DNA of 64,000 nucleotides from a virus. Its lineage: Duplodnaviria > Caudoviricetes. A model generated the notes under the pieces. That model did not search any database, was not told the DNA's origin, and saw only the letters and a program-made list of their open reading frames with translations. The translations under genes and the position numbers were made by a program. This document shows, piece by piece, positions 6,922-19,825 of the stretch. The stretch is taken from the IMG/VR virus record IMGVR_UViG_3300044645_001661. One strand, given 5' to 3'. Position 1 is the first letter of the stretch. Every line of letters begins with the position of its first letter.

Positions 6922-7104
6922 ATGAATATTCCATCTAAATCTGAATTGATTCATTATAAAATTCAAGCAGCAATGAGAGAGAATACTTTTAGTGAAGATC
7001 AAATGAAGTATCTTGGTGAGCGTGATGGCACTCACTGGTATCTTATTGATGGTAAGCATGAAGTATCATCTGATCAATTTGAAGAGTTTGAGGTAGTAGA
7101 ATGA
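6922..7104 (+). CDS. hypothetical protein
   Basis: ORF track; GAGG SD and a late-promoter-like TATAAAT just upstream. Confidence 0.7.
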   Translation: MNIPSKSELIHYKIQAAMRENTFSEDQMKYLGERDGTHWYLIDGKHEVSSDQFEEFEVVE

Positions 7105-7201
7105 AACTTAGTTGATACATATAATGGATGTGATATAATTAAATGGCAAAATCCACATACAGAGAATATAAATTCTTTTTAGATTACTCAAACAAAAACC
7201 A

Positions 7202-7576
7202 ATGAATAATCAATACGACAGAGAAGAAGAACAAGTAGAATATGTTTTCAATGTCAACACTTTTGGGATGGTTGAAATTGAAACTGAGACAATTCCAACA
7301 ACAGAATCTGTTATTAATGATGCTGCAGAAAAAGCATCAAAAATTTTAAATGTTGATCTTAAAAATATTGATAAAATCAAATTTTTAAGAATGTATCTTG
7401 CACTTTATTCAATGTGTGGTTATCATCCTACAGATCGATCTGTAGGAGATAATATGATGCGTTGGTGGTTAAATACTGATAATAAGCATCTTGGATATAT
7501 ACCTGTAAATTATCTTCATCATCCATTACAATTAGATGAAATCATTCGTTATCTAGAATCATTTATTAATCATTAA
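7202..7576 (+). CDS. hypothetical protein
   Basis: ORF track. Confidence 0.65.
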   Translation: MNNQYDREEEQVEYVFNVNTFGMVEIETETIPTTESVINDAAEKASKILNVDLKNIDKIKFLRMYLALYSMCGYHPTDRSVGDNMMRWWLNTDNKHLGYIPVNYLHHPLQLDEIIRYLESFINH

Positions 7577-7583
7577 ATCTATT

Positions 7584-7904
7584 ATGCTCTCTACACAATA
7601 CCGTCTTAAACTTCAAGCAATTTGCGATAGAATTGTCAATCATCAATCTGTAGATTTACAGGATATGATTTGGGCAGAGAAACTTGCAAAAGTAAATCGC
7701 ACTGCATCAACAATGCTAAGACAAGCAAGAAGAACTGCAGAAAATCCAGACATGCAAGAAGGTGATTTGGATGACTTTTTGAATCAACTTGATATTGGTG
7801 GTATTGGTCATGAGCGTAAAGGTATTCGTAGATTTGATACTGTTGATGAAATCGTAGACTTTTTCACTGAGGATAAACCAGATGATTGGAGACAACGAGA
7901 CTGA
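7584..7904 (+). CDS. conserved cyanophage hypothetical protein (MLSTQYRL...MIWAEKLAK)
   Basis: N-terminus recognised as a family common in T4-like cyanophages. Confidence 0.8.
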   Translation: MLSTQYRLKLQAICDRIVNHQSVDLQDMIWAEKLAKVNRTASTMLRQARRTAENPDMQEGDLDDFLNQLDIGGIGHERKGIRRFDTVDEIVDFFTEDKPDDWRQRD

Positions 7905-7914
7905 TTGGGAATTA

Positions 7915-8121
7915 ATGAAGAAGGGAGATTCTGTAACTTTTATTAGTTGTAGCACAACCCAAATTCAATGGGGTAATAATGATGATCCATATCTAACTTT
8001 AGAGGAAGGTGAGATTTATACTGTTGAAGATGTAAAAATTCACAGTATGCATACAAAAATAAAGTTAATTGGTTATAATGGTTGGTACAATAGTGTTTGT
8101 TTTATAAGGAACGAATTATGA
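7915..8121 (+). CDS. hypothetical protein (QWGNNDDP...HTK...NSVCF), start ATG 7915
   Basis: ORF track; ATGA overlap with the next gene. Confidence 0.7.
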   Translation: MKKGDSVTFISCSTTQIQWGNNDDPYLTLEEGEIYTVEDVKIHSMHTKIKLIGYNGWYNSVCFIRNEL

Positions 8122-8348
8122 ATGCAATTTTATGGAATGGTACATTAGATAATCGCTATGAATGTACTGTAGAACACACATCTCAATACAAAGGGCAATT
8201 ACGCATCTTTGATAATCAAACTGATTCAGTTCTTTTAATTGAAGAAGTTGGTGTATCTTATGGTGCAACATTTGGTGCTGACATGGGTGATGTATCTGAT
8301 TGGCAGAATCGTTGTTCTGAATTCATTGATTCAATGGCATCAAATTAA
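8118..8348 (+). CDS. hypothetical protein (start ATG 8118)
   Basis: ORF track. Confidence 0.7.
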   Translation: MNAILWNGTLDNRYECTVEHTSQYKGQLRIFDNQTDSVLLIEEVGVSYGATFGADMGDVSDWQNRCSEFIDSMASN

Positions 8349-8370
8349 TTCAATTTAATAGGAATTTAAA

Positions 8371-8847
8371 ATGGATGATTTAACAAAGACTGCATTATGG
8401 ATCATCATGGATCCCTGGTATCCTACACCATACAAATGGGACTTAGACCAATATCCAAATATTGATGAACTGAATGAAGTTGTATTGAATCGAATTGTAG
8501 ATTATATTCCAAATTTAAATCATGTTTGCATCTCCTGCCCATTAACGATTATGGAGGATGATAAGGTTAAACAAGTCACACCACATCCAAAAGTATCTCA
8601 TTTGTATAACTTAGAGAACAGTATCTTTAAGTTATATTTTTATATGAAGAAGCATAATTTGAAGTCTATTGTGTATTGTGGATTTCACTATGGACGTTGT
8701 ATTCTAGATAAAGATGATGGGGCAATGAATACAACAAAACATTATGATGTATGGGTTAAAAAAGACTTTTGTGGATTGTATCCAGAAGATGATTGGGAAT
8801 CAACAGATGATCTTACACTTAAGTATGCAAAGATATACGATAGATAA
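8371..8847 (+). CDS. isochorismatase/cysteine-hydrolase-like protein
   Basis: ALWIIMDPW (beta1 Asp), IVYCGFHYGRCI (nucleophile loop), YDVWVKKDFC. Confidence 0.6.
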   Translation: MDDLTKTALWIIMDPWYPTPYKWDLDQYPNIDELNEVVLNRIVDYIPNLNHVCISCPLTIMEDDKVKQVTPHPKVSHLYNLENSIFKLYFYMKKHNLKSIVYCGFHYGRCILDKDDGAMNTTKHYDVWVKKDFCGLYPEDDWESTDDLTLKYAKIYDR

Positions 8848-8872
8848 TTATAACATCTAAGATCTTTTTTAA

Positions 8873-9835
8873 ATGGCAAAGTATTCAGAGCGAATGATTC
8901 GTGAAAACCAAAGACCAGGTGGATATAATGGTATTTGTTTTGGTCTTTTACATGATGAAGCAAGAAATAAGTTTTATGATGAATCACTCAAAAGGGCAAA
9001 AAATAAACGTGTTGTTGATGTTGGATCTGGTAGTGGATTGTTAGGGTTTTTAGCATTAAAACACGGGGCAAAGCATGTAACTTTTATTGAACAGAATCCA
9101 ACGTCTTATTGTCATATAAGAAAGGTATCTGAGATTATGGGAATTGATAAATCCCGTTATCGTATTATTAATGATGAGTTTGTTGCAAGTCGATGGGATG
9201 AATATCGATTAAACAATCCTGATATGATTGTACATGAATTAGTTGGTAGTTATATTTGGAATGATACAATTGGACAGGCATTTAATCAGTTCATACCTAA
9301 TGTAGAGATTATACCAAACTTATATGAATTAAAGTTTAGTATTGTTCCATTAAGTGAGTCTGGTTTTAATTATCTGCGTAAGTATCAAAATCAAGAGTCT
9401 ATTGAGAAGAGAACATTCTTGGATGTACGTGTTCCTATTGATAAGAAGTTTATTGCTTATTATGAGAACGTTTTAAATGATTATGATTATGAGATAGGTA
9501 TAGTACCTAGAGGAATGAGATCAATGCATGATGAATTGTTTGAGAGTTTATATTCATCTAAGATAGAGTATTATACACATGTATTTGATATTAATAAGGA
9601 GAAGGATTATAAGAGTAATACTATTGCATCGTTTAACTTACCTAAGACAGATAATCCTTATTTAATTTTTATTCATCCTTATCTTCACTCTAAGAAGAAT
9701 ACATTAGACTTTGTAGAGAGTACATCCTTTACTGGTCATCGTAGACCTATACTGATTCCTCCTCATGGTGAGTATAAGAAGTTAACGTATGATGTATTGA
9801 AGAATTATATGACGATTGATGATGTAAAAGTATAG
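8873..9835 (+). CDS. class I SAM-dependent methyltransferase, PRMT-like
   Basis: LLHDEARNKFY, VVDVGSGSGLL, TFIEQN, DMIVHELVGSYIWND. Confidence 0.85.
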   Translation: MAKYSERMIRENQRPGGYNGICFGLLHDEARNKFYDESLKRAKNKRVVDVGSGSGLLGFLALKHGAKHVTFIEQNPTSYCHIRKVSEIMGIDKSRYRIINDEFVASRWDEYRLNNPDMIVHELVGSYIWNDTIGQAFNQFIPNVEIIPNLYELKFSIVPLSESGFNYLRKYQNQESIEKRTFLDVRVPIDKKFIAYYENVLNDYDYEIGIVPRGMRSMHDELFESLYSSKIEYYTHVFDINKEKDYKSNTIASFNLPKTDNPYLIFIHPYLHSKKNTLDFVESTSFTGHRRPILIPPHGEYKKLTYDVLKNYMTIDDVKV

Positions 9836-10011
9836 TTTTTAATGTTTTTATATTAAAAAATGTATTAAAAAACATATAATAGTGTTTTTATTATCGTATT
9901 ACATTAGTGTTATATGGTAGTCTTATAGTGTTATTATCTCTTATAATAGTACTGAATCCTTTGGTTATTATACCTTTTATACCTCTGGATCCTTGTGATC
10001 TTAGACTGCGT

Positions 10012-10040
10012 ATTATAGCACAACCGCGAAAAAATGTCAA
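10012..10040 (-). promoter_or_regulatory. leftward sigma70-type promoter TTGACA-17-TATAAT with extended TG
   Basis: plus strand TGTCAA 10035-10040 and ATTATA 10012-10017; perfect consensus. Confidence 0.85.
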
Positions 10041-10071
10041 GCCCCCCGCCCAAAAAATATAAGGACGCGGC

Positions 10072-10100
10072 ATTTTATCACACACGCCCCCGTTTGTCAA
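10072..10100 (-). promoter_or_regulatory. leftward sigma70-type promoter TTGACA-17-TAAAAT with extended TG
   Basis: plus strand TGTCAA 10095-10100 and ATTTTA 10072-10077. Confidence 0.85.
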
Positions 10101-10108
10101 CTCCCAGG

Positions 10109-10329
10109 ATCTCGACGAGACTGCACGGTTATATCTCGACTAGATCACATAATCATATAACACTATCATTATATCATAAGATCTCGACGAGTCATATCAC
10201 AATATAACATCAGTATTATATCATACAATCTAGACGATATCATGTCACAGTATCATCACATAACATCATAATTAGTCACAATTATCTCGACGAGTATCAT
10301 ATATAACATCAATAAGATCTCGACGAGAT
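10109..10329. repeat. six copies of the 13-bp interrupted palindrome ATCTCG-A-CGAGAT
   Basis: starts at 10109, 10133, 10181, 10228, 10284, 10317; 0-2 mismatches; G-poor spacers. Confidence 0.9.
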
Positions 10330-10342
10330 CATGTGATGTCAC

Positions 10343-10371
10343 TTGACAAGACTTGCCGTATCATGTACACT
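10343..10371 (+). promoter_or_regulatory. sigma70-type promoter TTGACA-17-TACACT
   Basis: seen in sequence; perfect palindrome copy centred 43 bp upstream of the -10. Confidence 0.8.
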
Positions 10372-10395
10372 GTACACAGTTCGCACAAAGTTCTC

Positions 10396-10566
10396 ATGGG
10401 TAACACCGCATTCCTGGAAGCACAGAAGCACAAGTATCGCGTCACTCTAGAACTAGACGTTCTTGGAGATTTCGATCCTCATAATATCAACTGGGAGAAG
10501 TTGTTTGATCTTAATCCTGCAGAGAGTGTCAAATCTTATGTCGAAGACCTAGACTATCATTGGTAA
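10396..10566 (+). CDS. small conserved cyanophage-type protein (start ATG 10396)
   Basis: the longer ORF-track start overlaps the promoter; YRVTLELDV...INWEKLFDL. Confidence 0.75.
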   Translation: MGNTAFLEAQKHKYRVTLELDVLGDFDPHNINWEKLFDLNPAESVKSYVEDLDYHW

Positions 10567-10737
10567 CATAACATCATAGCATAAGGGATCCTGATGCGTC
10601 AAGTATGACGCACCCTTATGTGTATAAGTATTTCAAAGCTGGGGAAGTGGCGATGTATTGTCGTCCTCAGGGATACCTCTCCCCTCTTCTGGTTGTCTAC
10701 AAAAGATACATCAGAACGCCCGCAAAACCTGCATTGG

Positions 10738-10795
10738 GTGCCAGTTTGTGAACTGGTCACATGTGGCACAAGGTCCTAGGAGCAGCGGTTATAGT
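10738..10795 (+). promoter_or_regulatory. box A (GTGCCAGTT-tgtg-AACTGGTCAC) promoter, -10 TATAGT 10790-10795
   Basis: palindrome 10738-10760, ending 30 bp before the -10; no -35 consensus. Confidence 0.65.
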
Positions 10796-10819
10796 TGCTG
10801 GGCAAACGCAATTCGACCG

Positions 10820-11023
10820 ATGATTTTTTTGACATCTACCAATCATGGTTGTGTGTATACTCTGTCTCAAGAGGACGGTGATGAGTTGTACTTTGCACCC
10901 ATCTATGCAGACGGAACTGTTAACCTGGAGGAGTTCGCTCCTGTGGATATGAGTACTGTTGACATGGATGACATGGAGGTGTATGATATCCGTAACCGAC
11001 TGGTTGCCCTGTCCAATCTCTGA
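10820..11023 (+). CDS. hypothetical protein, 67 aa (start ATG 10820)
   Basis: downstream of the box A promoter; C-terminal part of ORF-track 10658..11023. Confidence 0.7.
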   Translation: MIFLTSTNHGCVYTLSQEDGDELYFAPIYADGTVNLEEFAPVDMSTVDMDDMEVYDIRNRLVALSNL

Positions 11024-11067
11024 ACTGGCACAAGGGGGTTGACAGGACCCCCACCATCGGTTAAATT
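11010..11067 (+). promoter_or_regulatory. box A (degenerate left half, AACTGGCAC 11023-11031) + TTGACA-17-TAAATT; GGGGG/CCCCC stem brackets the -35
   Basis: seen in sequence; box ends 31 bp before the -10. Confidence 0.8.
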
Positions 11068-11093
11068 TAAATCGTTCACCACTCAACCAAACA

Positions 11094-11558
11094 ATGGGAA
11101 CCCGCTCTCGCATCGGTTACGAACTTCCTGATCACTCTGTGGTTAGTGTTTACTGCCACTGGGATGGTTATGTAGAGAACAACGGTCGCATTCTGGTAGA
11201 GCACTATCAGAACCGCGATGATGTACAAGAACTCATCGATGGTGGTTCAATGTCAACTCTTCGTACCACTCACACCTGGGAGAGTGCTGCTCTTCGGGAT
11301 GAGAACGGCAAGATCATCGAAGATGATGCGGGCAGTTGGTCCTATTCCAACACTCGTGATCCTCAACCACTGTATCATTCTGAGCGTGGTGAGAATAACG
11401 AACCAGATGTCACTGACTTCGATATGTTTGTCTCTGGTAAAATGGGTGGCGAAGAGTATGCTTACCTGTATGATCTCAATGGTAACTGGAAAGCATACAA
11501 GATCGGTTGGGGACCTGTTGAACGTGTGGACATCCCCAACTACGTGACAGCAGCATAA
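11094..11558 (+). CDS. conserved phage protein (GTRSRIG...VYCHWDGY family)
   Basis: widely seen phage motif; function unknown. Confidence 0.85.
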   Translation: MGTRSRIGYELPDHSVVSVYCHWDGYVENNGRILVEHYQNRDDVQELIDGGSMSTLRTTHTWESAALRDENGKIIEDDAGSWSYSNTRDPQPLYHSERGENNEPDVTDFDMFVSGKMGGEEYAYLYDLNGNWKAYKIGWGPVERVDIPNYVTAA

Positions 11559-11601
11559 CTGTCACACTGGTCCTGGGCAAGACGCTAAACTGCCCTATAC
11601 T
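11544..11601 (+). promoter_or_regulatory. box A (GTGACAGCA-gcat-AACTGTCAC) promoter, -10 TATACT
   Basis: box ends 31 bp before the -10; GGGCA/TGCCC stem in the spacer; no -35 consensus. Confidence 0.75.
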
Positions 11602-11622
11602 TCATTCAGTTCAAACAAACCA

Positions 11623-11772
11623 ATGAACTTCACCATTAACGAACTCTCTGCTCTCTCTGATCTAATCTCCTTCCATGATGATTGGGATGAGGTAAGTGAG
11701 CGTGTTGGTTGCAATGTTTATGATCTTTATGAAAAGATCATGGGTGCAATGGATTCTGCAGGGGAGAGTTGA
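11623..11772 (+). CDS. acidic 49-aa protein, not in ORF track
   Basis: read from sequence; follows the promoter at 11596. Confidence 0.7.
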   Translation: MNFTINELSALSDLISFHDDWDEVSERVGCNVYDLYEKIMGAMDSAGES

Positions 11773-11774
11773 TC

Positions 11775-11996
11775 ATGTCACTCTCTAACAAATCAGTCAA
11801 CCGAATTGCTGCTGCACTTGTTGAAGAAGTTACTGAAGAACTTGTTGAGACTGGTGCATGGTTAGATTTCCTCCACACTAACATTGGTGGAATCATCACC
11901 GATAAACTTGGTGAAGTTGATGATGAAGTTCTAGCAGAACTGATTATGTGTGTCGCAGATCGAATTGGTATGAAACCATACACAGATCTCGACTAG
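11775..11996 (+). CDS. acidic hypothetical protein
   Basis: ORF track (first ATG used). Confidence 0.7.
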   Translation: MSLSNKSVNRIAAALVEEVTEELVETGAWLDFLHTNIGGIITDKLGEVDDEVLAELIMCVADRIGMKPYTDLD

Positions 11997-12086
11997 ATGC
12001 GTGTCACGTATCATATCAATCTCGACGAGATACGTGACGCATCACTTGACTAGATCAAATAATCATGTTATTATGATCTAGTCAAC
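11986..12086 (+). promoter_or_regulatory. two 13-bp palindrome copies (11986, 12019) and tRNA promoter TTGACT-17-TATTAT inside nested inverted repeats
   Basis: TTGACTAGATCA/TGATCTAGTCAA and GATGCGT..CACGTATC/GATACGTGACGCATC inverted repeats. Confidence 0.8.
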
Positions 12087-12091
12087 CACAA

Positions 12092-12175
12092 GGGGATGTG
12101 GTGGAATCGGTAGACACAACAGACTTAAAATCTGTCGGAGGCAACTCTGTGGGGGTTCAAGTCCCCCCGTCCCTA
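12092..12175 (+). tRNA. trnL: tRNA-Leu(UAA), no intron, CCA not encoded
   Basis: acceptor GGGGATG/CGTCCCT, anticodon arm ACAGA-CTTAAAA-TCTGT, long variable arm, T arm GGGGG-TTCAAGT-CCCCC. Confidence 0.95.
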
Positions 12176-12235
12176 TTACCTCTTCAATGGTATAATGTAC
12201 CATAAGAGGTCCAAACTCTCCTTCTAGAGGCACTC

Positions 12236-12376
12236 ATGCACGAATCCACGCTTGATATGTTCTGCTCTCATGACAACGACAATCTGGATATTGATGATGC
12301 TTTCCTATGTGCATTTGAGGAAGAAGCGGCTAAGTTAGAAATTACAGTAGATTATTATATGGCAGAGTTCCTGTAA
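12236..12376 (+). CDS. acidic 46-aa protein (EAAKLEITVDYYMAEF), not in ORF track
   Basis: read from sequence; GAGG upstream; motif familiar from cyanophage small genes. Confidence 0.7.
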   Translation: MHESTLDMFCSHDNDNLDIDDAFLCAFEEEAAKLEITVDYYMAEFL

Positions 12377-12458
12377 TATAATGGGGAAGGTGTTTGCCCT
12401 AAAAGTTACACTGTTACGCAGTTAATATTCTTTTAAATTAATGGGTGGATATGGTATC

Positions 12459-12489
12459 AAGACCTGGGGTGGTGCCCAGGTCTTTTTTT
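12459..12489 (+). terminator. intrinsic terminator
   Basis: AAGACCTGGG-gtggtg-CCCAGGTCTT followed by a T run. Confidence 0.85.
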
Positions 12490-12506
12490 ATGTTTTGTAA
12501 CAGACC

Positions 12507-12534
12507 TTGCCAGGGGGTGCTGGTGTGGTATGAT
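12507..12534 (+). promoter_or_regulatory. sigma70-type promoter TTGCCA-16-TG-g-TATGAT
   Basis: directly after the terminator, before ATG 12560. Confidence 0.65.
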
Positions 12535-12559
12535 TTGAAGGTCACCACGGGAGAACCCC

Positions 12560-12691
12560 ATGACTCTGGTTTGTGCCTCTGACATCGCCACCCGCCAACT
12601 GGTGTGGGTGAAGAACGCCACCGCCACTGGTGTGCCAGCTGCAGCACCGTCCCATGTTTGGGCAGATCTCGGTCGCCGTGGTATGATTTGA
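12560..12691 (+). CDS. 43-aa protein (MTLVCASDIATRQLVWV...), not in ORF track
   Basis: read from sequence; CCCC-ATG start context shared with neighbours. Confidence 0.6.
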   Translation: MTLVCASDIATRQLVWVKNATATGVPAAAPSHVWADLGRRGMI

Positions 12692-12712
12692 TTGTTCAAC
12701 ACCTGAACCACC

Positions 12713-12883
12713 ATGATCGCTGATCTCAACGGTTGCTTCCAACGTAATCCCGACATTCTCAAAGATGTTTGTGAGCACCGTGTTCAAATGGCAAACTTTG
12801 TATTAAGTTTTAACGAAAAGGATCCTGTTGAAAGTGCATGGTATCGTAGCGAAATCCGTCATTACAAACTCTATGATGTCTGA
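12713..12883 (+). CDS. 56-aa protein, not in ORF track
   Basis: read from sequence; TTCAACACCTGAACC leader. Confidence 0.6.
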   Translation: MIADLNGCFQRNPDILKDVCEHRVQMANFVLSFNEKDPVESAWYRSEIRHYKLYDV

Positions 12884-12937
12884 TCAGTAACGCTTATGGG
12901 TCAGGGGGTTGACTCCTGACCCACCCCATGCCAAACT
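12882..12937 (+). promoter_or_regulatory. box B (reverse orientation, GATCAG-N5-CTTATG) + TTGACT-17-TG-c-CAAACT; GGGTCAGG/CCTGACCC stem around the -35
   Basis: 12880-12902 is the reverse complement of 15139-15161 with 2 mismatches. Confidence 0.75.
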
Positions 12938-12961
12938 ACGTTTGTTCACCACTGAACCCCA

Positions 12962-13405
12962 ATGATTACCGAAACCGATCTGCAGTTCTTTGAGACCCAC
13001 TATCAAGCGGTTGAGAATCTTGGTATTCTCAATGTGTTTGAAGATCGTGAGGATCGTATTCGCTTCCGTGCCATCTCTAAGATGATGGAAGATCTTCTGG
13101 CACCTAAAAAAGAAAAGATCTCTCTCACTGAAGAAGAAATTCAACCCATCTTCCGCGAGTATCTTAACGCTTATACTTTTGACGGTAAGGTTAAAGTTTT
13201 TAACCGCAAGATTGCTGCTGAAGGTGTTCAATCCTTCCGCAAGAATCCTATTGCAACTGTCATGGGTATTCATGGGCAACTGGTGTATCATGACAACTGC
13301 AATCACAGCATTGTAAAGTCTTTTGATCGCACTGGTAAAACTCTGAAATCGATGATGTCTCAGTATAATGAACTGATCGGTTTTGAGCGGTTCAAGATCG
13401 ACTGA
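12962..13405 (+). CDS. hypothetical protein
   Basis: ORF track; own promoter and TTCACCACTGAAC leader. Confidence 0.8.
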   Translation: MITETDLQFFETHYQAVENLGILNVFEDREDRIRFRAISKMMEDLLAPKKEKISLTEEEIQPIFREYLNAYTFDGKVKVFNRKIAAEGVQSFRKNPIATVMGIHGQLVYHDNCNHSIVKSFDRTGKTLKSMMSQYNELIGFERFKID

Positions 13406-13459
13406 CACATTAAGAACTGTCACAGGGGGGCATCCGTGCCTCCCATCATGCCCTAAGAT
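13402..13459 (+). promoter_or_regulatory. box A (CTGACACAT-taag-AACTGTCAC) promoter, -10 TAAGAT
   Basis: box ends 31 bp before the -10; GGGGGGCA/TGCCTCCC stem; no -35 consensus. Confidence 0.75.
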
Positions 13460-13482
13460 TACTTCGTTCACCACTGAATCCC

Positions 13483-13620
13483 ATGCCTGAACTCTCCTGG
13501 ATTGATGATGTTCCGATGCCCGCAATGTCGGAAGAAGAGTATAATCAATCTGAAGAGCATTATGAAGATTCGGATTGGTGGAATGATCCCAACTGTGTAA
13601 TGTCCCGTCATCACTATTGA
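13483..13620 (+). CDS. acidic 45-aa protein (WNDPN..SRHHY), not in ORF track
   Basis: read from sequence. Confidence 0.7.
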   Translation: MPELSWIDDVPMPAMSEEEYNQSEEHYEDSDWWNDPNCVMSRHHY

Positions 13621-13623
13621 ATC

Positions 13624-13764
13624 ATGTTTGAACTTCTTGCTGCCGCTTACATGATCGGTCAGGTTCAAGTTGGACCTAACATGATCCAAACTAATTACAT
13701 CAACGAAGACAAACAAATCATCACTGTCACTGAAGTGATTCAAGAGGTTCCTAATGCAAATTGA
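13624..13764 (+). CDS. 46-aa protein, not in ORF track
   Basis: read from sequence; fills the gap. Confidence 0.6.
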   Translation: MFELLAAAYMIGQVQVGPNMIQTNYINEDKQIITVTEVIQEVPNAN

Positions 13765-13936
13765 TCGTGATTCTCTCATCGCTGATTATGCTCAGCAGAT
13801 CCTAGATGGGATGGACATGAAGACAATGGAGTGCTTCGTTTATGACACTCTGAAGGACAATCTTTCATCGTATTCTGATGAGGAATTGATTGAAGAAGTG
13901 ACAGAGTATAACCCCGAACTTCTAGAAAATGCCTAA
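13754..13936 (+). CDS. acidic hypothetical protein
   Basis: ORF track. Confidence 0.75.
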   Translation: MQIDRDSLIADYAQQILDGMDMKTMECFVYDTLKDNLSSYSDEELIEEVTEYNPELLENA

Positions 13937-14012
13937 AGTATAAATCATTACAGGATGGTTGGTATCTTGATTGTCATTGATACCATAAAACTCTACTGAG
14001 TGCTTCCCATCC

Positions 14013-14070
14013 TACCCAATTCTTGAACTGGCACATACCGCTTGACATGCTGCCAGGGATCGCTTAATCT
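14013..14070 (+). promoter_or_regulatory. box A (degenerate left half, AACTGGCAC 14026-14034) + TTGACA-17-TAATCT
   Basis: box ends 31 bp before the -10. Confidence 0.8.
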
Positions 14071-14141
14071 GTTATCAACAAGCGGGGGTGAAGCATCCCG
14101 CTCAAAACACTTCACTCAAACCCTTACATTGTGATTTAATT

Positions 14142-14369
14142 ATGTCTCAGTTCGCTTTTACCTCTTCTGCCATCGAAAGCATCTCTGATGTGAATGATGG
14201 TAAAGTGACCATCACCTTCAACGGTGGTCGTGAGTATACCTACGGTGTGCAAGATGTTGAGATGTTCGTGTCTCAACTGAGCACCGTGATTGCAGAACAG
14301 CAGTCGGTGGGTCGTTTTGTAAACAATGCTATCAAGACTGAGCAACTGCTTGCAGTGACCGCCGCCTGA
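14142..14369 (+). CDS. KTSC-domain protein (start ATG 14142)
   Basis: SSAIESI...VTITFNGGREYTY...SVGRFVNNAIK fits the KTSC pattern. Confidence 0.7.
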   Translation: MSQFAFTSSAIESISDVNDGKVTITFNGGREYTYGVQDVEMFVSQLSTVIAEQQSVGRFVNNAIKTEQLLAVTAA

Positions 14370-14424
14370 TAGTACAATACGGGAGGAGGCAACTCCTCCC
14401 ATTCCACAATCAACATAAAGAACC

Positions 14425-14583
14425 ATGGAACAATTTTTCGACACCGAAGAGTTCACCATCTTTGATCTTGTTGATGAATGCCAACCTCGTGAAGAATTAA
14501 CTTCTGAGGCAAAGCGTATGCTTAATGAAGTTGATGAGTATGATGACTATTCAGAAAGTTCAACCGATTTTGATTATGATTAA
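14425..14583 (+). CDS. very acidic 52-aa protein, not in ORF track
   Basis: read from sequence; GNRA-hairpin leader at 14381-14400. Confidence 0.65.
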   Translation: MEQFFDTEEFTIFDLVDECQPREELTSEAKRMLNEVDEYDDYSESSTDFDYD

Positions 14584-14641
14584 TCTCGACTAGTTAATCA
14601 TCATAATCTCGTCGAGTTATATCATAACATCTCGACGAGAT
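14583..14641. repeat. three 13-bp palindrome copies at 23-bp spacing
   Basis: ATCTCGACTAG 14583, ATCTCGTCGAG 14606, ATCTCGACGAGAT 14629. Confidence 0.85.
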
Positions 14642-14676
14642 ACACACAACACACCATTGAAATTCTTCTCTTTAAC

Positions 14677-14811
14677 ATGGAAACTCGTTCGCTTCTTCTC
14701 TCGCTCCTTCGTAAAGGTCAAACTGGTGAAGAAATTCTCCAGATTCTGGAAACTATCACTAGTGGCGATGATGATAGTGATGGTGCTACCTTGAACCCAA
14801 TCGATTTCTGA
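14677..14811 (+). CDS. 44-aa protein (LLRKGQTGEEILQILE), not in ORF track
   Basis: read from sequence. Confidence 0.65.
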   Translation: METRSLLLSLLRKGQTGEEILQILETITSGDDDSDGATLNPIDF

Positions 14812-14815
14812 TACA

Positions 14816-15004
14816 ATGGAAACCGCATTCGTGACGCCTGTATCTAAAAAAGCAAAGAACCGATTTGCTAATCTTATGGGTGGAATTGATGAATGTATTG
14901 TAGAGCAGCATAAAGGTGATAAAGTATTTCTTACAAGTGTGAATGGTAAAAATCACTTCTGGGTTAATATAAACAAAGATCCAGACTGGATCATAGAGTT
15001 CTAA
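14816..15004 (+). CDS. conserved small protein (AKNRFANLM...KVFLTSVNGKNHFWVN)
   Basis: ORF track; terminator follows. Confidence 0.75.
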   Translation: METAFVTPVSKKAKNRFANLMGGIDECIVEQHKGDKVFLTSVNGKNHFWVNINKDPDWIIEF

Positions 15005-15015
15005 GATCATACCAC

Positions 15016-15041
15016 ACCCCGCAACTAGCGGGGTTTTTTTT
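15016..15041 (+). terminator. intrinsic terminator
   Basis: ACCCCGC-aacta-GCGGGGT + T8. Confidence 0.9.
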
Positions 15042-15081
15042 ATACTTAAGTATTGTATGCTTCCCACCCCTCCCGCCCTCT

Positions 15082-15197
15082 AGCGTAGGGGCGGTGCCCC
15101 CTAAAAGTCAACCCCTGGCTTATAAGCATTTCTGATGCGACCCATAAGCGAGACTGATCAGAAAACCCGTTGCAGGGTGCCCCCGATGCTGTAGGAT
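15082..15197. promoter_or_regulatory. divergent promoter pair around two tandem box B sites (15121-15137, 15143-15159)
   Basis: leftward TTGACT (15106-11)-18-TACGCT (15082-87); rightward TTGCAG (15170-75)-16-TAGGAT (15192-97). Confidence 0.65.
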
Positions 15198-15220
15198 TCG
15201 ATCAACGCCAACCCACCCCC

Positions 15221-15835
15221 ATGGCACACACCGATTCGATCATCGCAATGTATTTCCAGAGCAACACTCTGGATCGGCAAACTGGTGCCCAATGGTATAA
15301 CAATGCCTATGGCATTTGTGTTACTTTGGGCGAAAAGTATGGTGTTCATTCTGACATCGTTGCAGGTGTTATCGCTGCACTTTCTCCTAACAACAAATGG
15401 GAGAGAAATGTAGAGGATGCTGAGGCAATGATCAAAGCATGGGCATACGAAATCTCCTATGATTCGGTTGCAGTTTGTTCCTACTCTGCCAACAAAGACA
15501 AGGCACAAACTATTCTCGATTTGCAACTTAATCGTGAGCAGATTGTTAAAGTTTTGCGTGGCAACAAAACTATTGCTTTCTTCCTTTGTATTGCTAACAA
15601 TGGTGATAGCGATTCTCCCTGCATTGATGGTCACGCTTACAACATTTGGAACGGAACTGTAACTAACCTGAAAGAGGTTCCTTCTATGTCAGACAAAACT
15701 TTCCGCATGATTCAAGATGCCTACCGTGACGCTGCTAAGTTAATCTCTGAGGTGTCGGGATCTTATCATTCAGCGGCACAGATTCAAGCGATCACCTGGG
15801 TTTCGTATCGCAGGATACACAAAGGTCTAGTGTGA
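15221..15835 (+). CDS. putative HhH-fold DNA glycosylase-like protein (start ATG 15221)
   Basis: GAQWY, AGVIAALSPNNKW, RGNKTIAFF, CIDGHAYNIW, AQIQAITWV. Confidence 0.6.
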   Translation: MAHTDSIIAMYFQSNTLDRQTGAQWYNNAYGICVTLGEKYGVHSDIVAGVIAALSPNNKWERNVEDAEAMIKAWAYEISYDSVAVCSYSANKDKAQTILDLQLNREQIVKVLRGNKTIAFFLCIANNGDSDSPCIDGHAYNIWNGTVTNLKEVPSMSDKTFRMIQDAYRDAAKLISEVSGSYHSAAQIQAITWVSYRRIHKGLV

Positions 15836-15892
15836 CGGATTGTTACGGGGCACCGCCAGCACCCACGGGTGCCCCATCCCATCCTGTAGAAT
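15831..15892 (+). promoter_or_regulatory. box C (TGTGA-N7-TTAC) + GGGGCACC/GGTGCCCC stem + -10 TAGAAT
   Basis: near-identical layout recurs at 16916-16967. Confidence 0.65.
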
Positions 15893-15917
15893 TTCAGAGT
15901 CAACACGAGAGAGACCC

Positions 15918-16103
15918 ATGCGGTTCTACATCCTCCCCGACCACACCGATTTCGTTCCTGCTGATCAGGAATGGTTCTACACTCAAGATGAGGCATACGA
16001 TGCCGCGTTTGATTGGAGTGCTGAACTCGGCGGAGTTCCTGTTAAGATTGGCACCTTCAATCTTGGCGGTCCTAGTTACACTGTGGCGGTTGTAACTGCC
16101 TGA
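15918..16103 (+). CDS. 61-aa protein (start ATG 15918)
   Basis: part of ORF-track 15840..16103 downstream of the promoter. Confidence 0.7.
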   Translation: MRFYILPDHTDFVPADQEWFYTQDEAYDAAFDWSAELGGVPVKIGTFNLGGPSYTVAVVTA

Positions 16104-16115
16104 GGGTAACAACAA

Positions 16116-16135
16116 CGGGGGGTGAAATTCCCCCC
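16116..16135 (+). repeat. 20-nt hairpin CGGGGGGTGAAATTCCCCCC, identical copy at 17147-17166
   Basis: exact duplicate; each lies ~25-30 nt before an ATG. Confidence 0.85.
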
Positions 16136-16163
16136 AATTCTTTACATTCAACCCCACAAGATC

Positions 16164-16325
16164 ATGGCAATCGGTATCACCATCCGTTACCAAACTCCCT
16201 ACAATCAGTGTGAGTGGAGAACGCAAACTTTCCCCACAATTGATGAGGCAAACCGCATGGTAGATTTCTATCGTTCCTGTGGTTCTCCTGCTGAGGTTGT
16301 TACTTTCCGTGAGGGGCAAAAATGA
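16164..16325 (+). CDS. 53-aa protein (IRYQTPYNQCEWR...RMVDFYRSCGSPA)
   Basis: start ATG 16164 after the hairpin. Confidence 0.7.
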   Translation: MAIGITIRYQTPYNQCEWRTQTFPTIDEANRMVDFYRSCGSPAEVVTFREGQK

Positions 16326-16432
16326 AAACATTTATGATCATTTTTGCAGTTGCGTTTCTATTCTCTCCAGCAGTTAGAAACACTACCGCGAACACTCTAC
16401 ACACCGCCGCCGCCATCATTTCTGCAGAATGA
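16322..16432 (+). CDS. 36-aa hydrophobic peptide, not in ORF track
   Basis: ATGA overlaps at both ends. Confidence 0.55.
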   Translation: MKTFMIIFAVAFLFSPAVRNTTANTLHTAAAIISAE

Positions 16433-16596
16433 CACACTATCCCTCCCGCCTTCGGTTTAAACTTCCCGCCGAAAGAATCACTGAACTTGTTGAAAAGAAT
16501 TGCACAATCCTAAGTGATGCTGAATGGATGCAATTTTTTGAAGAAATTAACACTATTTCCGATTGTAACGATTCGCCCGTTCTGGTCACGACCTGA
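16429..16596 (+). CDS. 55-aa protein, not in ORF track
   Basis: ATGA overlap. Confidence 0.5.
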   Translation: MTHYPSRLRFKLPAERITELVEKNCTILSDAEWMQFFEEINTISDCNDSPVLVTT

Positions 16597-16659
16597 CCGC
16601 CTGACCGTCTAGGATACTAACAAGCGAGGCAAGGGACCTCGCTCAACCCCAAACCGACT

Positions 16660-16920
16660 ATGTTCGCTTCGATCATCCGCACCGCCATCCGCTCCCACCT
16701 GATCCAGAACGGTCCCCAGACCTGCTCTGATCTTGTGCGGGCGATGGGTTTGGATCCCCGCCGCCATAAGGGCACCATTCACGCCCTTATGGTTGATCTT
16801 GAGACTGCAGGCACCCTGTCTGCCACCCGTGCTGATAATGGCAAGCGGGATCTGTGGTTTGTGAATTTCGATCAAATCCGCAAGCGGGATCGTATCATCG
16901 CTGCCCTCTCTGGAGTGTGA
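16660..16920 (+). CDS. winged helix-turn-helix DNA-binding protein
   Basis: IRSHLIQNGPQTCSDLVRAMGL...TIHALMVDLETAGTL...W: three helices plus a beta wing. Confidence 0.7.
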   Translation: MFASIIRTAIRSHLIQNGPQTCSDLVRAMGLDPRRHKGTIHALMVDLETAGTLSATRADNGKRDLWFVNFDQIRKRDRIIAALSGV

Positions 16921-16967
16921 ACGATTGTTACAGGGGCATCGCTAAGGGTGCCCCTACCCTCTAAGAT
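16916..16967 (+). promoter_or_regulatory. box C (TGTGA-N7-TTACA) + GGGGCATC/GGTGCCCC stem + -10 TAAGAT
   Basis: TTAC ends 31 bp before the -10. Confidence 0.7.
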
Positions 16968-17005
16968 ACATTCAAGCGGGACACACCCGCACTGCTCTAA
17001 ACATC

Positions 17006-17140
17006 ATGTTCGATCCCTTTGTTTGTGATCAGCAGATTGAAGAATACATCCCCACAGAGGATGATTGGCATTCAATCTACGATGATGATCAGGAACTGGA
17101 AATGTACTCTCTAGAGTGTTGCTTCGGTCCTGAGGAATGA
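17006..17140 (+). CDS. very acidic 44-aa protein, not in ORF track
   Basis: read from sequence. Confidence 0.65.
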   Translation: MFDPFVCDQQIEEYIPTEDDWHSIYDDDQELEMYSLECCFGPEE

Positions 17141-17191
17141 AACAATCGGGGGGTGAAATTCCCCCCTTCTCAAACTAACCCAATTCTCGCC

Positions 17192-17518
17192 ATGTTCCCC
17201 ACCGTTCTTCTCAACAATCCGATGATTGAAAAGTATAATGAACTGCGGCAGGAAGTTCTTTCTAACGAAACCCTGCAGCAGGTTCTTTATACTCTCGCCA
17301 CGGTTCTAGGTGTTATCGTAGGCGTTAGCGTTTGGTTCTACAATCGTGCCCGCCAATGGTATAACGAAGGTGGCAAAGATCTTTTCTACTTTGGTATCAA
17401 TACTAAGGCAGGAAAGGATGATGAACAGTTCGGCGTTGCTGTAGGCAAACTCTACGTGGGTTTGTATAACAATGTCGTTCACATTGGGCTCACCGATCAC
17501 AATGGGTGCCTGCCTTAA
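17192..17518 (+). CDS. membrane-anchored hypothetical protein (start ATG 17192 or 17221)
   Basis: hydrophobic VLYTLATVLGVIVGVSVWFY segment. Confidence 0.7.
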   Translation: MFPTVLLNNPMIEKYNELRQEVLSNETLQQVLYTLATVLGVIVGVSVWFYNRARQWYNEGGKDLFYFGINTKAGKDDEQFGVAVGKLYVGLYNNVVHIGLTDHNGCLP

Positions 17519-17916
17519 TTAACACTTATGGGGTGCTGAGTTCGTTATACTTAGCACCCCTACATTCGTGCGTAAGTGTAAATGTGACAGTCTGTGACAG
17601 ACAGTTGACGGTATAACGGTATCGTGATAGCGGCGGGCCGTGCCCCCTACCCCCCCTTAGCTAAAATCGATGACTCCCCTAACCTACAGAGGTGACAAAA
17701 CGAGTGAGTGATTTCATGTCCATAAGAAAAAAATTTACCAAAAATTTTCTGCCCCATAAGGTCATCAAAAACCCTCACATAAGTCTTTACGTGCAACTGG
17801 AGTATGTTATAATAAGTCTCCGAGAATCTCTATGGATTCTCATATCACACGCCCTCAAAGAATTTTCCGAGGGGGCAAAGAGGTGATATATAATGATGTA
17901 ATGAGAAAGTGAGGCG

Positions 17917-18081
17917 ATGGACAAAAAAATCTATCACATTTATGATAAAGAGAATCAGTGTGTATCTCCATGTTTATCTGAGGAAGAATTCAGTAATACT
18001 TGGAAAGAACTCACAGAAGATTCTTATGAATACGAAGAACTCGATGTTTCTTATTCAAAACAAGAAGAGGCATCTTATTGA
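17917..18081 (+). CDS. 54-aa conserved cyanophage-type protein (IYHIY...EEASY), not in ORF track
   Basis: GAGG SD; read from sequence. Confidence 0.7.
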   Translation: MDKKIYHIYDKENQCVSPCLSEEEFSNTWKELTEDSYEYEELDVSYSKQEEASY

Positions 18082-19067: not shown

Positions 19068-19213
19068 TGGCTATTAGAAAATCTCTGAGTGGTAACAAGG
19101 TTGTAATCGAATCTAATCCTAAGAAAAGTAGGCAAGGAGATGGTAAACACACTAAGTACGCCGCTACGTCTCGCAATAAAGCTCGTAAAAAGTACAGGGG
19201 ACAGGGAAATTAA
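19067..19213 (+). CDS. 48-aa basic protein ending KKYRGQGN, not in ORF track
   Basis: read from sequence; TAATG overlap. Confidence 0.75.
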   Translation: MAIRKSLSGNKVVIESNPKKSRQGDGKHTKYAATSRNKARKKYRGQGN

Positions 19214-19216
19214 TCT

Positions 19217-19825
19217 ATGTACCTTTTAGACTCACAAGAAGAATGGAAGAATATTCACGATTCTGATCTGTGGGTCTATAATAAACTTTTTTTAAGTCGG
19301 ATACTGGGATATAACTGTGGACCTATTGGGGTTCCAGTTCCCAAGTCCGACTTTTATATTGTTCGCCCTTCTTTTAATCTATTAGGTATGGGGCGTTTCG
19401 CTCGAATAGAGTGGATAGATCAATATACAGACCATCTACATCCATCAGAGTTTTGGTGTGAAGTATTTGAAGGAGAACATATTAGTGTAGATTATAAGAA
19501 TAAACATCCAGAACTAACTGTACTTGGTACAAAAGATTTAAAAGATCCCTTATACAAATGGAGTAAATGGGAAAAGATCAATAGATTCATAGAGTTCCCA
19601 TCAGTTTTAAATGAACTCAAAGGGGACTATGAATATATTAATTGTGAATTCATAGGTAATAAATTAATTGAAGTTCATTTTAGAAGAAATCCAGATTTTA
19701 GATACGGGAATAATGTCGCAATTCCCATCTGGAATGATCAAGATATTGAAGAAGTAGACGATTATAACTATATTAGAGACGAAGATTACCGTCGAAAAGG
19801 TTTTTTGATTGATAACACGGGATAG
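19217..19825 (+). CDS. ATP-grasp-like protein
   Basis: YNKL...IVRPSFNLLGMG...FWCEVFEGEHISVDY...INCEFIGNKLIEVHFR. Confidence 0.65.
   Translation: MYLLDSQEEWKNIHDSDLWVYNKLFLSRILGYNCGPIGVPVPKSDFYIVRPSFNLLGMGRFARIEWIDQYTDHLHPSEFWCEVFEGEHISVDYKNKHPELTVLGTKDLKDPLYKWSKWEKINRFIEFPSVLNELKGDYEYINCEFIGNKLIEVHFRRNPDFRYGNNVAIPIWNDQDIEEVDDYNYIRDEDYRRKGFLIDNTG

Follow-up and report, generated by a model that had tools for sequence, protein, structure and literature searches.

A conserved single-copy non-coding module of T4-like cyanophages as a candidate replication origin

This analysis concerns positions 9836 to 10371 of a viral DNA stretch of 64,000 nucleotides (nt), IMG/VR record IMGVR_UViG_3300044645_001661, which as a whole is referred to as the window. 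Comparison with related sequences indicates that T4-like cyanophages (Kyanoviridae) share a conserved non-coding module, of which this region is the single copy in the window phage. The module contains a leftward promoter, which is predicted to fire through repeats and boxes, against every neighboring gene, and into an AT-rich block. An earlier, sequence-only reading of the region had proposed an origin of replication that is primed by an R-loop. From its sequence, the region is the best available candidate for the replication start of T4-like cyanophages. We give a probability of about one half to the module being a transcription-primed early replication origin like T4 oriF, oriG and oriE.

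From left to right on the plus strand, the module runs from the end of the upstream gene through the AT box, three boxes and direct repeats to the start-proximal box and the leftward promoter. Its parts in the window, with the predicted transcript, are as follows.

9836–9900, no strand: AT-rich block of 11% GC, candidate unwinding element; its core, 9850–9891, is the conserved AT box
9879–9891, 9896–9915 and 9925–9937, no strand: three lineage-specific TAGTGTTAT-type boxes (repeat families D3 and D7)
9938–9983, no strand: short direct repeats of the CTCTTATAAT / GTTATTATAC type (family D5), between the boxes and the transcript start
9984–10049, minus strand: conserved core, made up of promoter P2 and the start-proximal box CCTTGTGATCTTAG (9991–10004); profile match of 61.9 bits, E 2.5e-18
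10040–10012, minus strand: leftward promoter P2, TTGACA-17-TATAAT, 12/12 consensus positions, extended -10 (TG); -35 at 10040–10035, -10 at 10017–10012, predicted start near 10005
10100–10072, minus strand: leftward promoter P1 (region 10070–10108), TTGACA-17-TAAAAT, 11/12, extended -10 (TG); -35 at 10100–10095, -10 at 10077–10072, predicted start near 10065
9836–10065, minus strand: predicted leftward non-coding transcript or transcripts, 170–230 nt, 48% A

The two tandem minus-strand sigma70 promoters lie exactly where the sequence-only reading had placed them. A promoter that matches the consensus perfectly is found once in the 64 kb against 0.17 expected, and at least one is found in 15 of 100 shuffles. 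Because of this, a single perfect promoter is unremarkable alone, and the case rests on conservation and not on the match itself. The geometry of the leftward promoter (TTGAC, a spacer of exactly 17 nt and TAnnnT) is present in all 25 non-redundant lineages. The extended TG is present in 21 of the 25, and the sequence of the spacer drifts. This pattern would be explained by a working minus-strand promoter, and we see no other reading of it. The conserved start-proximal box and the leftward transcript overlap at positions +5 to +20, and the first ~25 transcribed nt are conserved. Only one full match to the core profile was found in the window. The P1 region matches positions 27–65 of the profile at 17.3 bits and is present only in the window and in its closest relative, viral contig L001/L002. 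P1 therefore does not belong to the module in general and appears to be a partial, lineage-specific duplicate of the promoter half of the core.

The closest relative was found with an exact-word scan and is 80–87% identical to the window. Identity reaches 95% across the two promoters and across the core (compared with L002), 90% across the first three of the palindromes described below, and 86% in the adjacent small gene, with 55–72% in the rest of the spacer. This small gene, which encodes 56 amino acids (aa) and belongs to phrog_12516, was used as an anchor and gave 37 loci. The core profile matches 32 of the 37 anchored loci, once each, always pointing away from the anchor gene and at a distance of 120–1500 nt on its upstream side. 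Of the five loci with no core match, one has only 49 nt of upstream sequence. Since the anchor gene was used for the search, the conserved right flank cannot count as separate evidence. The core does not depend on the anchor; the two lie 13 kb apart in P-TIM68. The core occurs once in each of two complete genomes, at 58108–58173 in S-SM2 and, as a weak match, at 57963–58010 in P-TIM68. There is also one core per contig in five contigs of 70–102 kb, adjacent partial duplicates aside. The window agrees with these relatives in having the core promoter in the same orientation and in a single copy. The gp25-gp6 baseplate genes are located downstream of the module, at ~2.3 kb in P-TIM68, ~3 kb in S-SM2 and ~10 kb here. 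A near-identity search of phage records with the region gave no match. A search for distant matches with 211 nt gave AT-rich chance matches and short matches to the AT box in S-SCSM1, DSL-LC03 and P-TIM40 only.

The AT-rich stretch at 9836–9900 was confirmed. By nearest-neighbor stability, counted over distinct sites in the 64 kb, this block is the 2nd least stable at a length of 100 nt, the 4th at 60 nt and the 8th at 40 nt. In the complete genomes of ~190 kb, the AT box ranks 2nd to 16th in instability in S-SM2 and 5th to 9th in P-TIM68. Its 14-mer core, AAATGTATTAAAAA, has 0–4 mismatches across the 25 lineages. The window copy has none and lies 127 nt from the conserved core. In every lineage, 106–225 nt separate the leftward start from the AT box downstream of it.

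The three boxes to the left of the promoters in the window occupy the position that is held in relatives by three DnaA boxes or by TTGAGAAT-type boxes. Those of the window and L002 are of the TGTTATAT type, with three copies to the left and another four, inverted, to the right. An exact 11-bp inverted repeat, 9905–9915 / 10155–10165, had been reported to flank the promoters. This repeat was verified and is part of the wider set of TGTTATAT / ATATAACA boxes. The three boxes of many relatives have the form TTTTCCACA N5 TGTGGAAAA N12 TGTGGAAAA, with one forward and two reverse, and TTTTCCACA/TGTGGAAAA boxes match the cyanobacterial DnaA-box consensus (PMC4674748). Other lineages have TTCTCAAT/ATTGAGAA boxes in the same geometry as the DnaA trio. 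L015 and L016 carry TGATAATCATTATCA at the box position (~20–40 in L015 and ~2510–2530 in L016, left of the core). We take TGATAATCATTATCA to be a perfect 7-1-7 Fur-type box. A scan of viral contigs for the DnaA-box trio gave 80 loci, 20 of which have the core 38–150 nt to the right, in the canonical order. In another 6 of the 80, as in P-TIM68, the promoter has the trio on its opposite side.

The trio of one forward and two reverse DnaA boxes is replaced by the TGTTATAT-type boxes in the window. No DnaA box of the form TTWTNCACA was found in 9836–10395. Window-wide, TTWTNCACA occurs 9 times against 12.8 expected, and TTTTCCACA is absent from the whole 64 kb. This lack of DnaA boxes in the window suggests that they are an exchangeable accessory. 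More generally, the type of box appears to be an exchangeable accessory of the module, and the promoter and AT box its invariant parts. As the module persists here without a DnaA box, host DnaA cannot be an essential partner. The window is a DnaA-box-free variant of the module and adds this constraint on the mechanism. Within 3 kb, the only genes that co-occur with a box type are clade-specific genes of the monophyletic clade that carries the palindromes, where kinship confounds the association. No gene that co-occurs with the TTGAGAAT-type boxes was found within 3 kb.

Tandem copies of the CTCTTATAAT / GTTATTATAC-type units are found in L002 and L013–L016 and are clade-specific. Across lineages, the direct repeats of the module are 10–34 nt long and carry CTTGTGAT (2.9 per kb there vs 0.14 per kb elsewhere). 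TTGTGAT is found at 2.9 per kb in the regions on the left of the module and at 0.14 per kb elsewhere.

Other arrangements of boxes and repeats were also seen. A weak, reverse-oriented match to the core is found exactly 316–318 nt after the DnaA trio in ~16 viral loci (L047, L075, L080, L082, L086, L088, L089, L093, L103, L112, L117, L118 and L122–L124). In P-TIM68, two perfect DnaA boxes form an inverted pair that is flanked by two rightward promoters and lies on the right side of the leftward one. In other lineages, the TTGAGAAT/TTCTCAA boxes resemble a one-base variant of the TGATAATCATTATCA half-sites. In S-PM2, ~180 nt of tandem AAGATTT/GAGATTT-type repeats (19440–19620) lie to the right of the DnaA trio, within a non-coding gap of ~440 nt (19197–19636).

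The predicted leftward RNA has no coding role. The region had been called free of open reading frames (ORFs), which does not hold in the strict sense, since mechanical ORFs of 42–69 aa overlap it. These ORFs have no PHROG match and are not kept in relatives. A small peptide on the leftward RNA (the 42-aa ORF 9875–9747) has no family match and was rejected. The ORFs 9891–10100 (minus strand), 9907–10062 (plus) and 10034–10207 (plus) were also rejected, with no family match and with the start or frame lost in L013 and L014. The reading of this RNA as a structured RNA was rejected since it folds no better than its shuffles (z -0.06) and matches no Rfam family; the only Rfam match in the search was a tRNA. 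No terminator was detected in the window ahead of the upstream gene at 8873–9835. In at least 13 lineages, a GC-rich terminator, a hairpin flanked by runs of A and T, was seen by eye at the left end of the module. Contigs from four lake and wetland metatranscriptomes cover 10804–11278 and the tRNA region, which are outside of the module. One RNA contig of 216 nt touches 9983–10009 and 10154–10173 in short pieces, as would be expected from a rearranged relative.

The module was compared to known origins. T4 oriF (uvsY) and oriG (gene 34) consist of a promoter and a downstream unwinding element and use an R-loop as a primer (Kreuzer and Brister 2010, PMC3016281). The module resembles them in its promoter, in the A+T-rich element downstream of it and in the non-coding use of the transcript. 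In contrast to the MotA-dependent promoters of T4, the promoter of the module is of the sigma70 type with a TTGACA -35, and no MotA-dependent middle-mode promoter was found. Cyanomyoviruses lack motA and asiA, and share the T4 replisome genes (PMC2984593). The unwinding element of T4 can be replaced by any other, whereas the AT box of the module is conserved in sequence and lies 106–225 nt downstream. The module also differs in having repeats and protein boxes between the promoter and the AT box, in having one copy per genome where T4 has several origins, and in lying neither at uvsY nor at gene 34.

The T4 record NC_000866 places oriE 1.7 kb upstream of gene 6 and annotates it as a primer RNA that is made on the minus strand and runs against gene 5. 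Like oriE (Vaiskunaite 1999, as cited in PMC3016281), the module would have a primer RNA opposite to the surrounding rightward genes, and it has direct repeats (iterons) and a place upstream of the gene 6-7-8 baseplate block. The orientation of the predicted transcript agrees, and the distance to gp6 is 2.3–3 kb in P-TIM68 and S-SM2; it is ~10 kb in the window, which is a difference from oriE. In addition, oriE is located within gene 5, and its iterons, 12 nt long at a pitch of 24 nt, belong to the coding sequence, whereas the module is non-coding and its repeats are unrelated. The early leftward transcripts of T4 encode RepEA and RepEB, in contrast to the RNA of the module, which has no such ORF. 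Neither evenly spaced 12-nt iterons nor repEA/repEB were found on the predicted leftward transcript, and homologues of RepEA/RepEB elsewhere were not searched for.

Origins with DnaA boxes include bacterial oriC and iteron plasmid or prophage origins such as P1 oriR, RK2 oriV and pSC101. The relatives resemble these in having a cluster of perfect host DnaA boxes beside an AT-rich block and direct repeats. The window differs by its lack of a DnaA box; no initiator gene was recognized beside the repeats, and the adjacent promoter of the module fires into the repeats, not away from them. In the primary origin of T7, an AT-rich tract comes after the tandem promoter pair phi1.1A and phi1.1B. The window is similar to it, with two tandem promoters that read into an AT-rich non-coding tract. 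Unlike T7, the module has host-type promoters and not those of a phage RNA polymerase, the doubling is lineage-specific, and the phage family is unrelated. A single theta origin has been predicted for Syn9, as cited in PMC2984593. In the literature searched, no description of the module or of DnaA boxes in cyanophages was found, and the Syn9 prediction was its only statement on a cyanomyovirus origin; no such origin is known to have been mapped.

If the module is an origin, host RNA polymerase would start near 10005 and 10065 right after infection. The unstructured, A-rich RNA would extend 110–230 nt into the AT box, where it would open the duplex or remain hybridized. From this RNA as a primer, the phage replisome would then begin leading-strand synthesis in the leftward direction, in the manner of T4 oriF/oriG and oriE. 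An accessory factor that aids melting or the timing of firing would bind to the boxes. This factor may be host DnaA in many relatives, and the TGTTATAT-type boxes would replace the DnaA boxes here. Transcription, the R-loop, priming and factor binding are steps that we infer; the promoter, boxes, AT box and their conservation are what was observed. The proposal of an R-loop origin gains from the conserved leftward promoter, the meltable AT box, the single copy and the initiator-type boxes. It loses the palindromes, which are not specific to an origin, the compositional flip, which is no origin skew, and P1, which is lineage-specific.

Several points weigh against an origin. The leftward start is predicted only, and the metatranscriptome contigs did not span the module. 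RNA:DNA hybrids of the A-rich transcript would be weak. A polymerase that transcribes towards the AT box has positive supercoils in front of it, and T4-type phages can replicate largely via recombination. Since motA is absent from cyanomyoviruses and T4 RNase H from most of them (PMC2984593), the mechanism of T4 cannot apply here unchanged. The core profile found nothing in Syn9, S-PM2 or P-SSM2. Only degenerate versions of the module were seen by eye in Syn9 (52.55–52.76 kb) and S-PM2 (19.2–19.35 kb), where its parts accompany clusters of DnaA boxes. A conserved promoter and 5' end, with a terminator in many relatives, also fit a small RNA gene.

The composition of the DNA adds two more points of this kind. 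At an origin, the plus strand is expected to switch from C-rich to G-rich. In the window, GC skew is strongly positive left of 10 kb and about zero within a GC-rich block to the right, so the local flip has the wrong polarity. GC content rises from 0.29 to 0.43–0.50 at 10 kb and is back to ~0.30 near 19 kb. The flip from G/T-rich to A/C-rich that had been described is real, but it is not an origin skew: it is made locally by the inverted boxes and by the jump in GC at 10 kb. It reflects a mosaic boundary and the inverted orientation of the boxes, with no replication signal. Cumulative GC/AT skew, which had been suggested as a check, was calculated for the complete relatives S-SM2 and P-TIM68 and rises monotonically, with no inflection at the module. 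Such a rise is expected where nearly all of the genes are on one strand. Skew is dominated by this one-strand coding and is uninformative rather than contrary to an origin.

A broader and tentative idea is that T4-like cyanophages might share one origin cassette, in which an invariant engine of promoter and AT box is combined with swappable initiator boxes. Depending on the lineage, these could perhaps be boxes for host DnaA, TTGAGAAT-type boxes, Fur-like palindromic boxes or TGTTATAT boxes, which we put forward just as tentatively. If this were true, related phages would couple the start of replication to different host or phage factors. In lakes and oceans alike, few viruses are as abundant as the T4-like cyanophages, and much of the takeover of the host is driven by their DNA synthesis. 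With its defined promoter, repeats and AT box in one conserved copy, the module offers a concrete site for tests in phages in culture, such as S-SM2 and P-TIM68.

To the right of the leftward promoters, the window contains palindromes, rightward promoters and small genes, as listed here.

10109–10329, no strand: array A, six ATCTCGACGAGAT-type palindromes at 10109, 10133, 10181, 10228, 10284 and 10317
10155, 10202, 10258 and 10301: four ATATAACA boxes interleaved in array A, inverted relative to the left boxes
10343–10371, plus strand: rightward early promoter, TTGACA-17-TACACT; the last palindrome ends 13 nt before its -35
10396–10566, plus strand: conserved 56-aa gene (phrog_12516), served by the promoter at 10343–10371
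11986–12031: palindrome cluster B, copies at 11986 and 12019; ends 14 nt before the next promoter
12046–12074, plus strand: promoter TTGACT-17-TATTAT, serving tRNA-Leu(TAA) at 12092–12175
14583–14641: palindrome cluster C, three copies at 23-nt spacing, between a stop codon and the ATG of the 44-aa gene
14677–14811: gene for a 44-aa acidic protein, directly after the three palindromes, with the motif G-N/Q-T-G-x-E-I-L-x-I-L

The rightward promoter that had been placed to the right of the palindromes is present. All six palindromes of array A are also in place, and their number was reached in no shuffle, but only one is exact, the other five having 1–2 mismatches, and the site is not unique. 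The palindromes had been proposed as organizer sites of the origin. This was not upheld, as the same 13-mer is also clustered in two further intergenic regions, with synteny in relatives. Clusters A, B and C are all syntenic in L001, L013, L014 and L016. Array A is present in L001 and L013–L016 only, and the palindromes are absent from all other lineages that bear the module. Each hairpin would have a 6-bp stem and a 3-nt loop with no T-run on the plus strand; a terminator was flagged on the minus strand only. The degenerate copies retain the left half-site ATCTCGAC and not the hairpin pairing, which favors a protein site over a hairpin. GATC (7 sites) and TCGA (5 sites) are enriched in 9984–10335, in agreement with the overlap of palindromes and GATC that had been noted, but this is mostly because these sites are part of the palindrome itself. 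The best explanation of the palindromes appears to be a separate, clade-specific protein site beside early-promoter cassettes, at three intergenic locations and outside of the conserved core.

The closest described elements to these palindromes are the PeSLs, promoter/stem-loop cassettes in the hyperplastic regions of T4-type phages (PMC2839356, PMC4122927). As in PeSLs, a short palindrome directly precedes a near-consensus sigma70-type early promoter in a plastic, mosaic region. This is seen twice in the window, at 10317–10371 (palindrome 10317–10329, promoter 10343–10371) and at 12019–12074 (12019–12031 and 12046–12074). Unlike PeSLs, the palindromes of the window come in arrays of up to six, and the cluster at 14583–14641 has no promoter. 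Their degenerate copies keep a half-site and not the pairing, and no T-run accompanies the palindromes. As for the conserved leftward core, it is no PeSL.

Another possible explanation for the module is a hub of transcription control with no replication start, in which the leftward promoter acts as a competitor, insulator or supercoil generator for the rightward early promoters. We consider this unlikely. The boxes would then be sensors of a host or phage factor that times early expression, a role that seems unlikely to about the same degree. Rightward early promoters do lie directly beside the leftward one, both here and in relatives, and the palindromes end 13–14 nt before two rightward -35 hexamers. 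This spacing is not kept in relatives, where it is 3–10 nt (L001) or ~85 nt (L013–L016). Box types that are exchangeable between lineages are expected for regulator sites, the conserved box at +5 to +20 of the leftward transcript is in the place of an operator, and DnaA is known to act as a transcription factor as well. A hub gives no account of the conserved, minimally stable AT box at its 106–225 nt downstream in all lineages, nor of the strict single copy in genomes with many early promoters. The module may instead be a gene for a regulatory RNA of 170–350 nt with a conserved 5' end (..CUAAGAUCACAAG..) and repeated motifs, acting in trans or, as in the alternative named by the sequence-only reading, antisense to the upstream genes. 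This appears quite improbable to us. The strong conservation of the promoter and of the first ~25 transcribed nt would suit such a gene, and so would the terminator hairpin that bounds the unit, by eye, in at least 13 relatives. As no terminator was detected in the window, the RNA would run antisense here into the methyltransferase-like gene at 8873–9835, and the antisense alternative keeps some weight for this phage. However, sequence conservation does not extend to the body of the RNA, and the window RNA has neither an Rfam match nor excess folding. The features that are conserved in the body are of a DNA type, namely inverted and direct boxes for proteins, DnaA boxes and the AT box. The upstream gene differs among close relatives while the module stays, which makes a specific antisense target unlikely.

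A junction for recombination alone, with PeSL-like promoter/stem-loop cassettes kept at a mosaic border for gene shuffling, is very unlikely in our view. The jump in GC at 10 kb is sharp. In L001/L002, the genes to the left of the module are unrelated to those of the window, right up to the AT tract, so the left flank was replaced in the closest relative. The units of a palindrome and a near-consensus promoter resemble the PeSLs of T4-type hyperplastic regions (PMC4122927). However, PeSLs are present in many copies and are oriented with the genes, whereas the core is single-copy and is oriented against them. The core is also kept across lineages that share no palindromes, and PeSLs have no counterpart of the AT box or of the geometry of the three boxes.

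The best protein matches of the window are to Synechococcus and Prochlorococcus myoviruses at an amino-acid identity of at most 58%. This level of identity points to a new freshwater T4-like cyanomyovirus in the context of Kyanoviridae as the source phage. The window has gp6-type baseplate genes at 20620–22536, followed by giant structural ORFs. Its DNA was matched in many lake-water metagenomes in a search of public runs.

The GC content of the block at 10000–18000 is 0.41–0.50, compared with 0.27–0.36 for the genome around it, and its GC skew is about zero. The block contains many small ORFs without an assigned function and the one tRNA-Leu(TAA), and it is common to the window and contig L001 at 80–87% identity. 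No Pfam or PHROG function was found for the ORFs of the 10–18 kb block, including 16660–16920. Metatranscriptome contigs from lakes and a wetland span 10804–11278 (ORFs 10658–11023 and 11094–11558) at 95–100% identity, and therefore part of the GC-rich block appears in RNA libraries. The left block (~7100–9835) is swapped for unrelated genes in L001. Its methyltransferase-like gene has weak Pfam matches to Cons_hypoth95 and MTS. This gene is also the left neighbor of the module in L013 and L016, and not in L002 or L014.

Structure models were made of the two small neighbors. The 44-aa protein gave a two-helix hairpin at low confidence (pLDDT 64). The model of the 56-aa protein (pLDDT 79) had no fold match in the PDB, and the structure atlas gave unnamed clusters only. 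Neither of the two models showed a DNA-binding fold, and the two proteins belong to no family. Homologues of the 44-aa protein are always near the module, directly to its left in L023, L024, L033 and L034, and 0.8–3.4 kb to its right in L003, L005, L006, L008 and L014. The 56-aa gene has the leader ACAGTTCGCACAAAGTTCTC (10372–10398) ahead of its ATG; this leader lacks a purine run of the Shine-Dalgarno type and is identical in L013–L016.

In database records, the module is overlaid by annotated tiny ORFs (SSM2_085 to 087 in S-SM2 and gp86/gp87 in Syn9) or by tRNA calls. The sites are 57841–58355 in S-SM2 (NC_015279), gp86-gp87 in Syn9 and 19177–19333 in S-PM2. The ORF calls over the boxes and promoter are probably spurious. 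In P-TIM68, the module lies in an unannotated gap of 645 nt (57650–58296).

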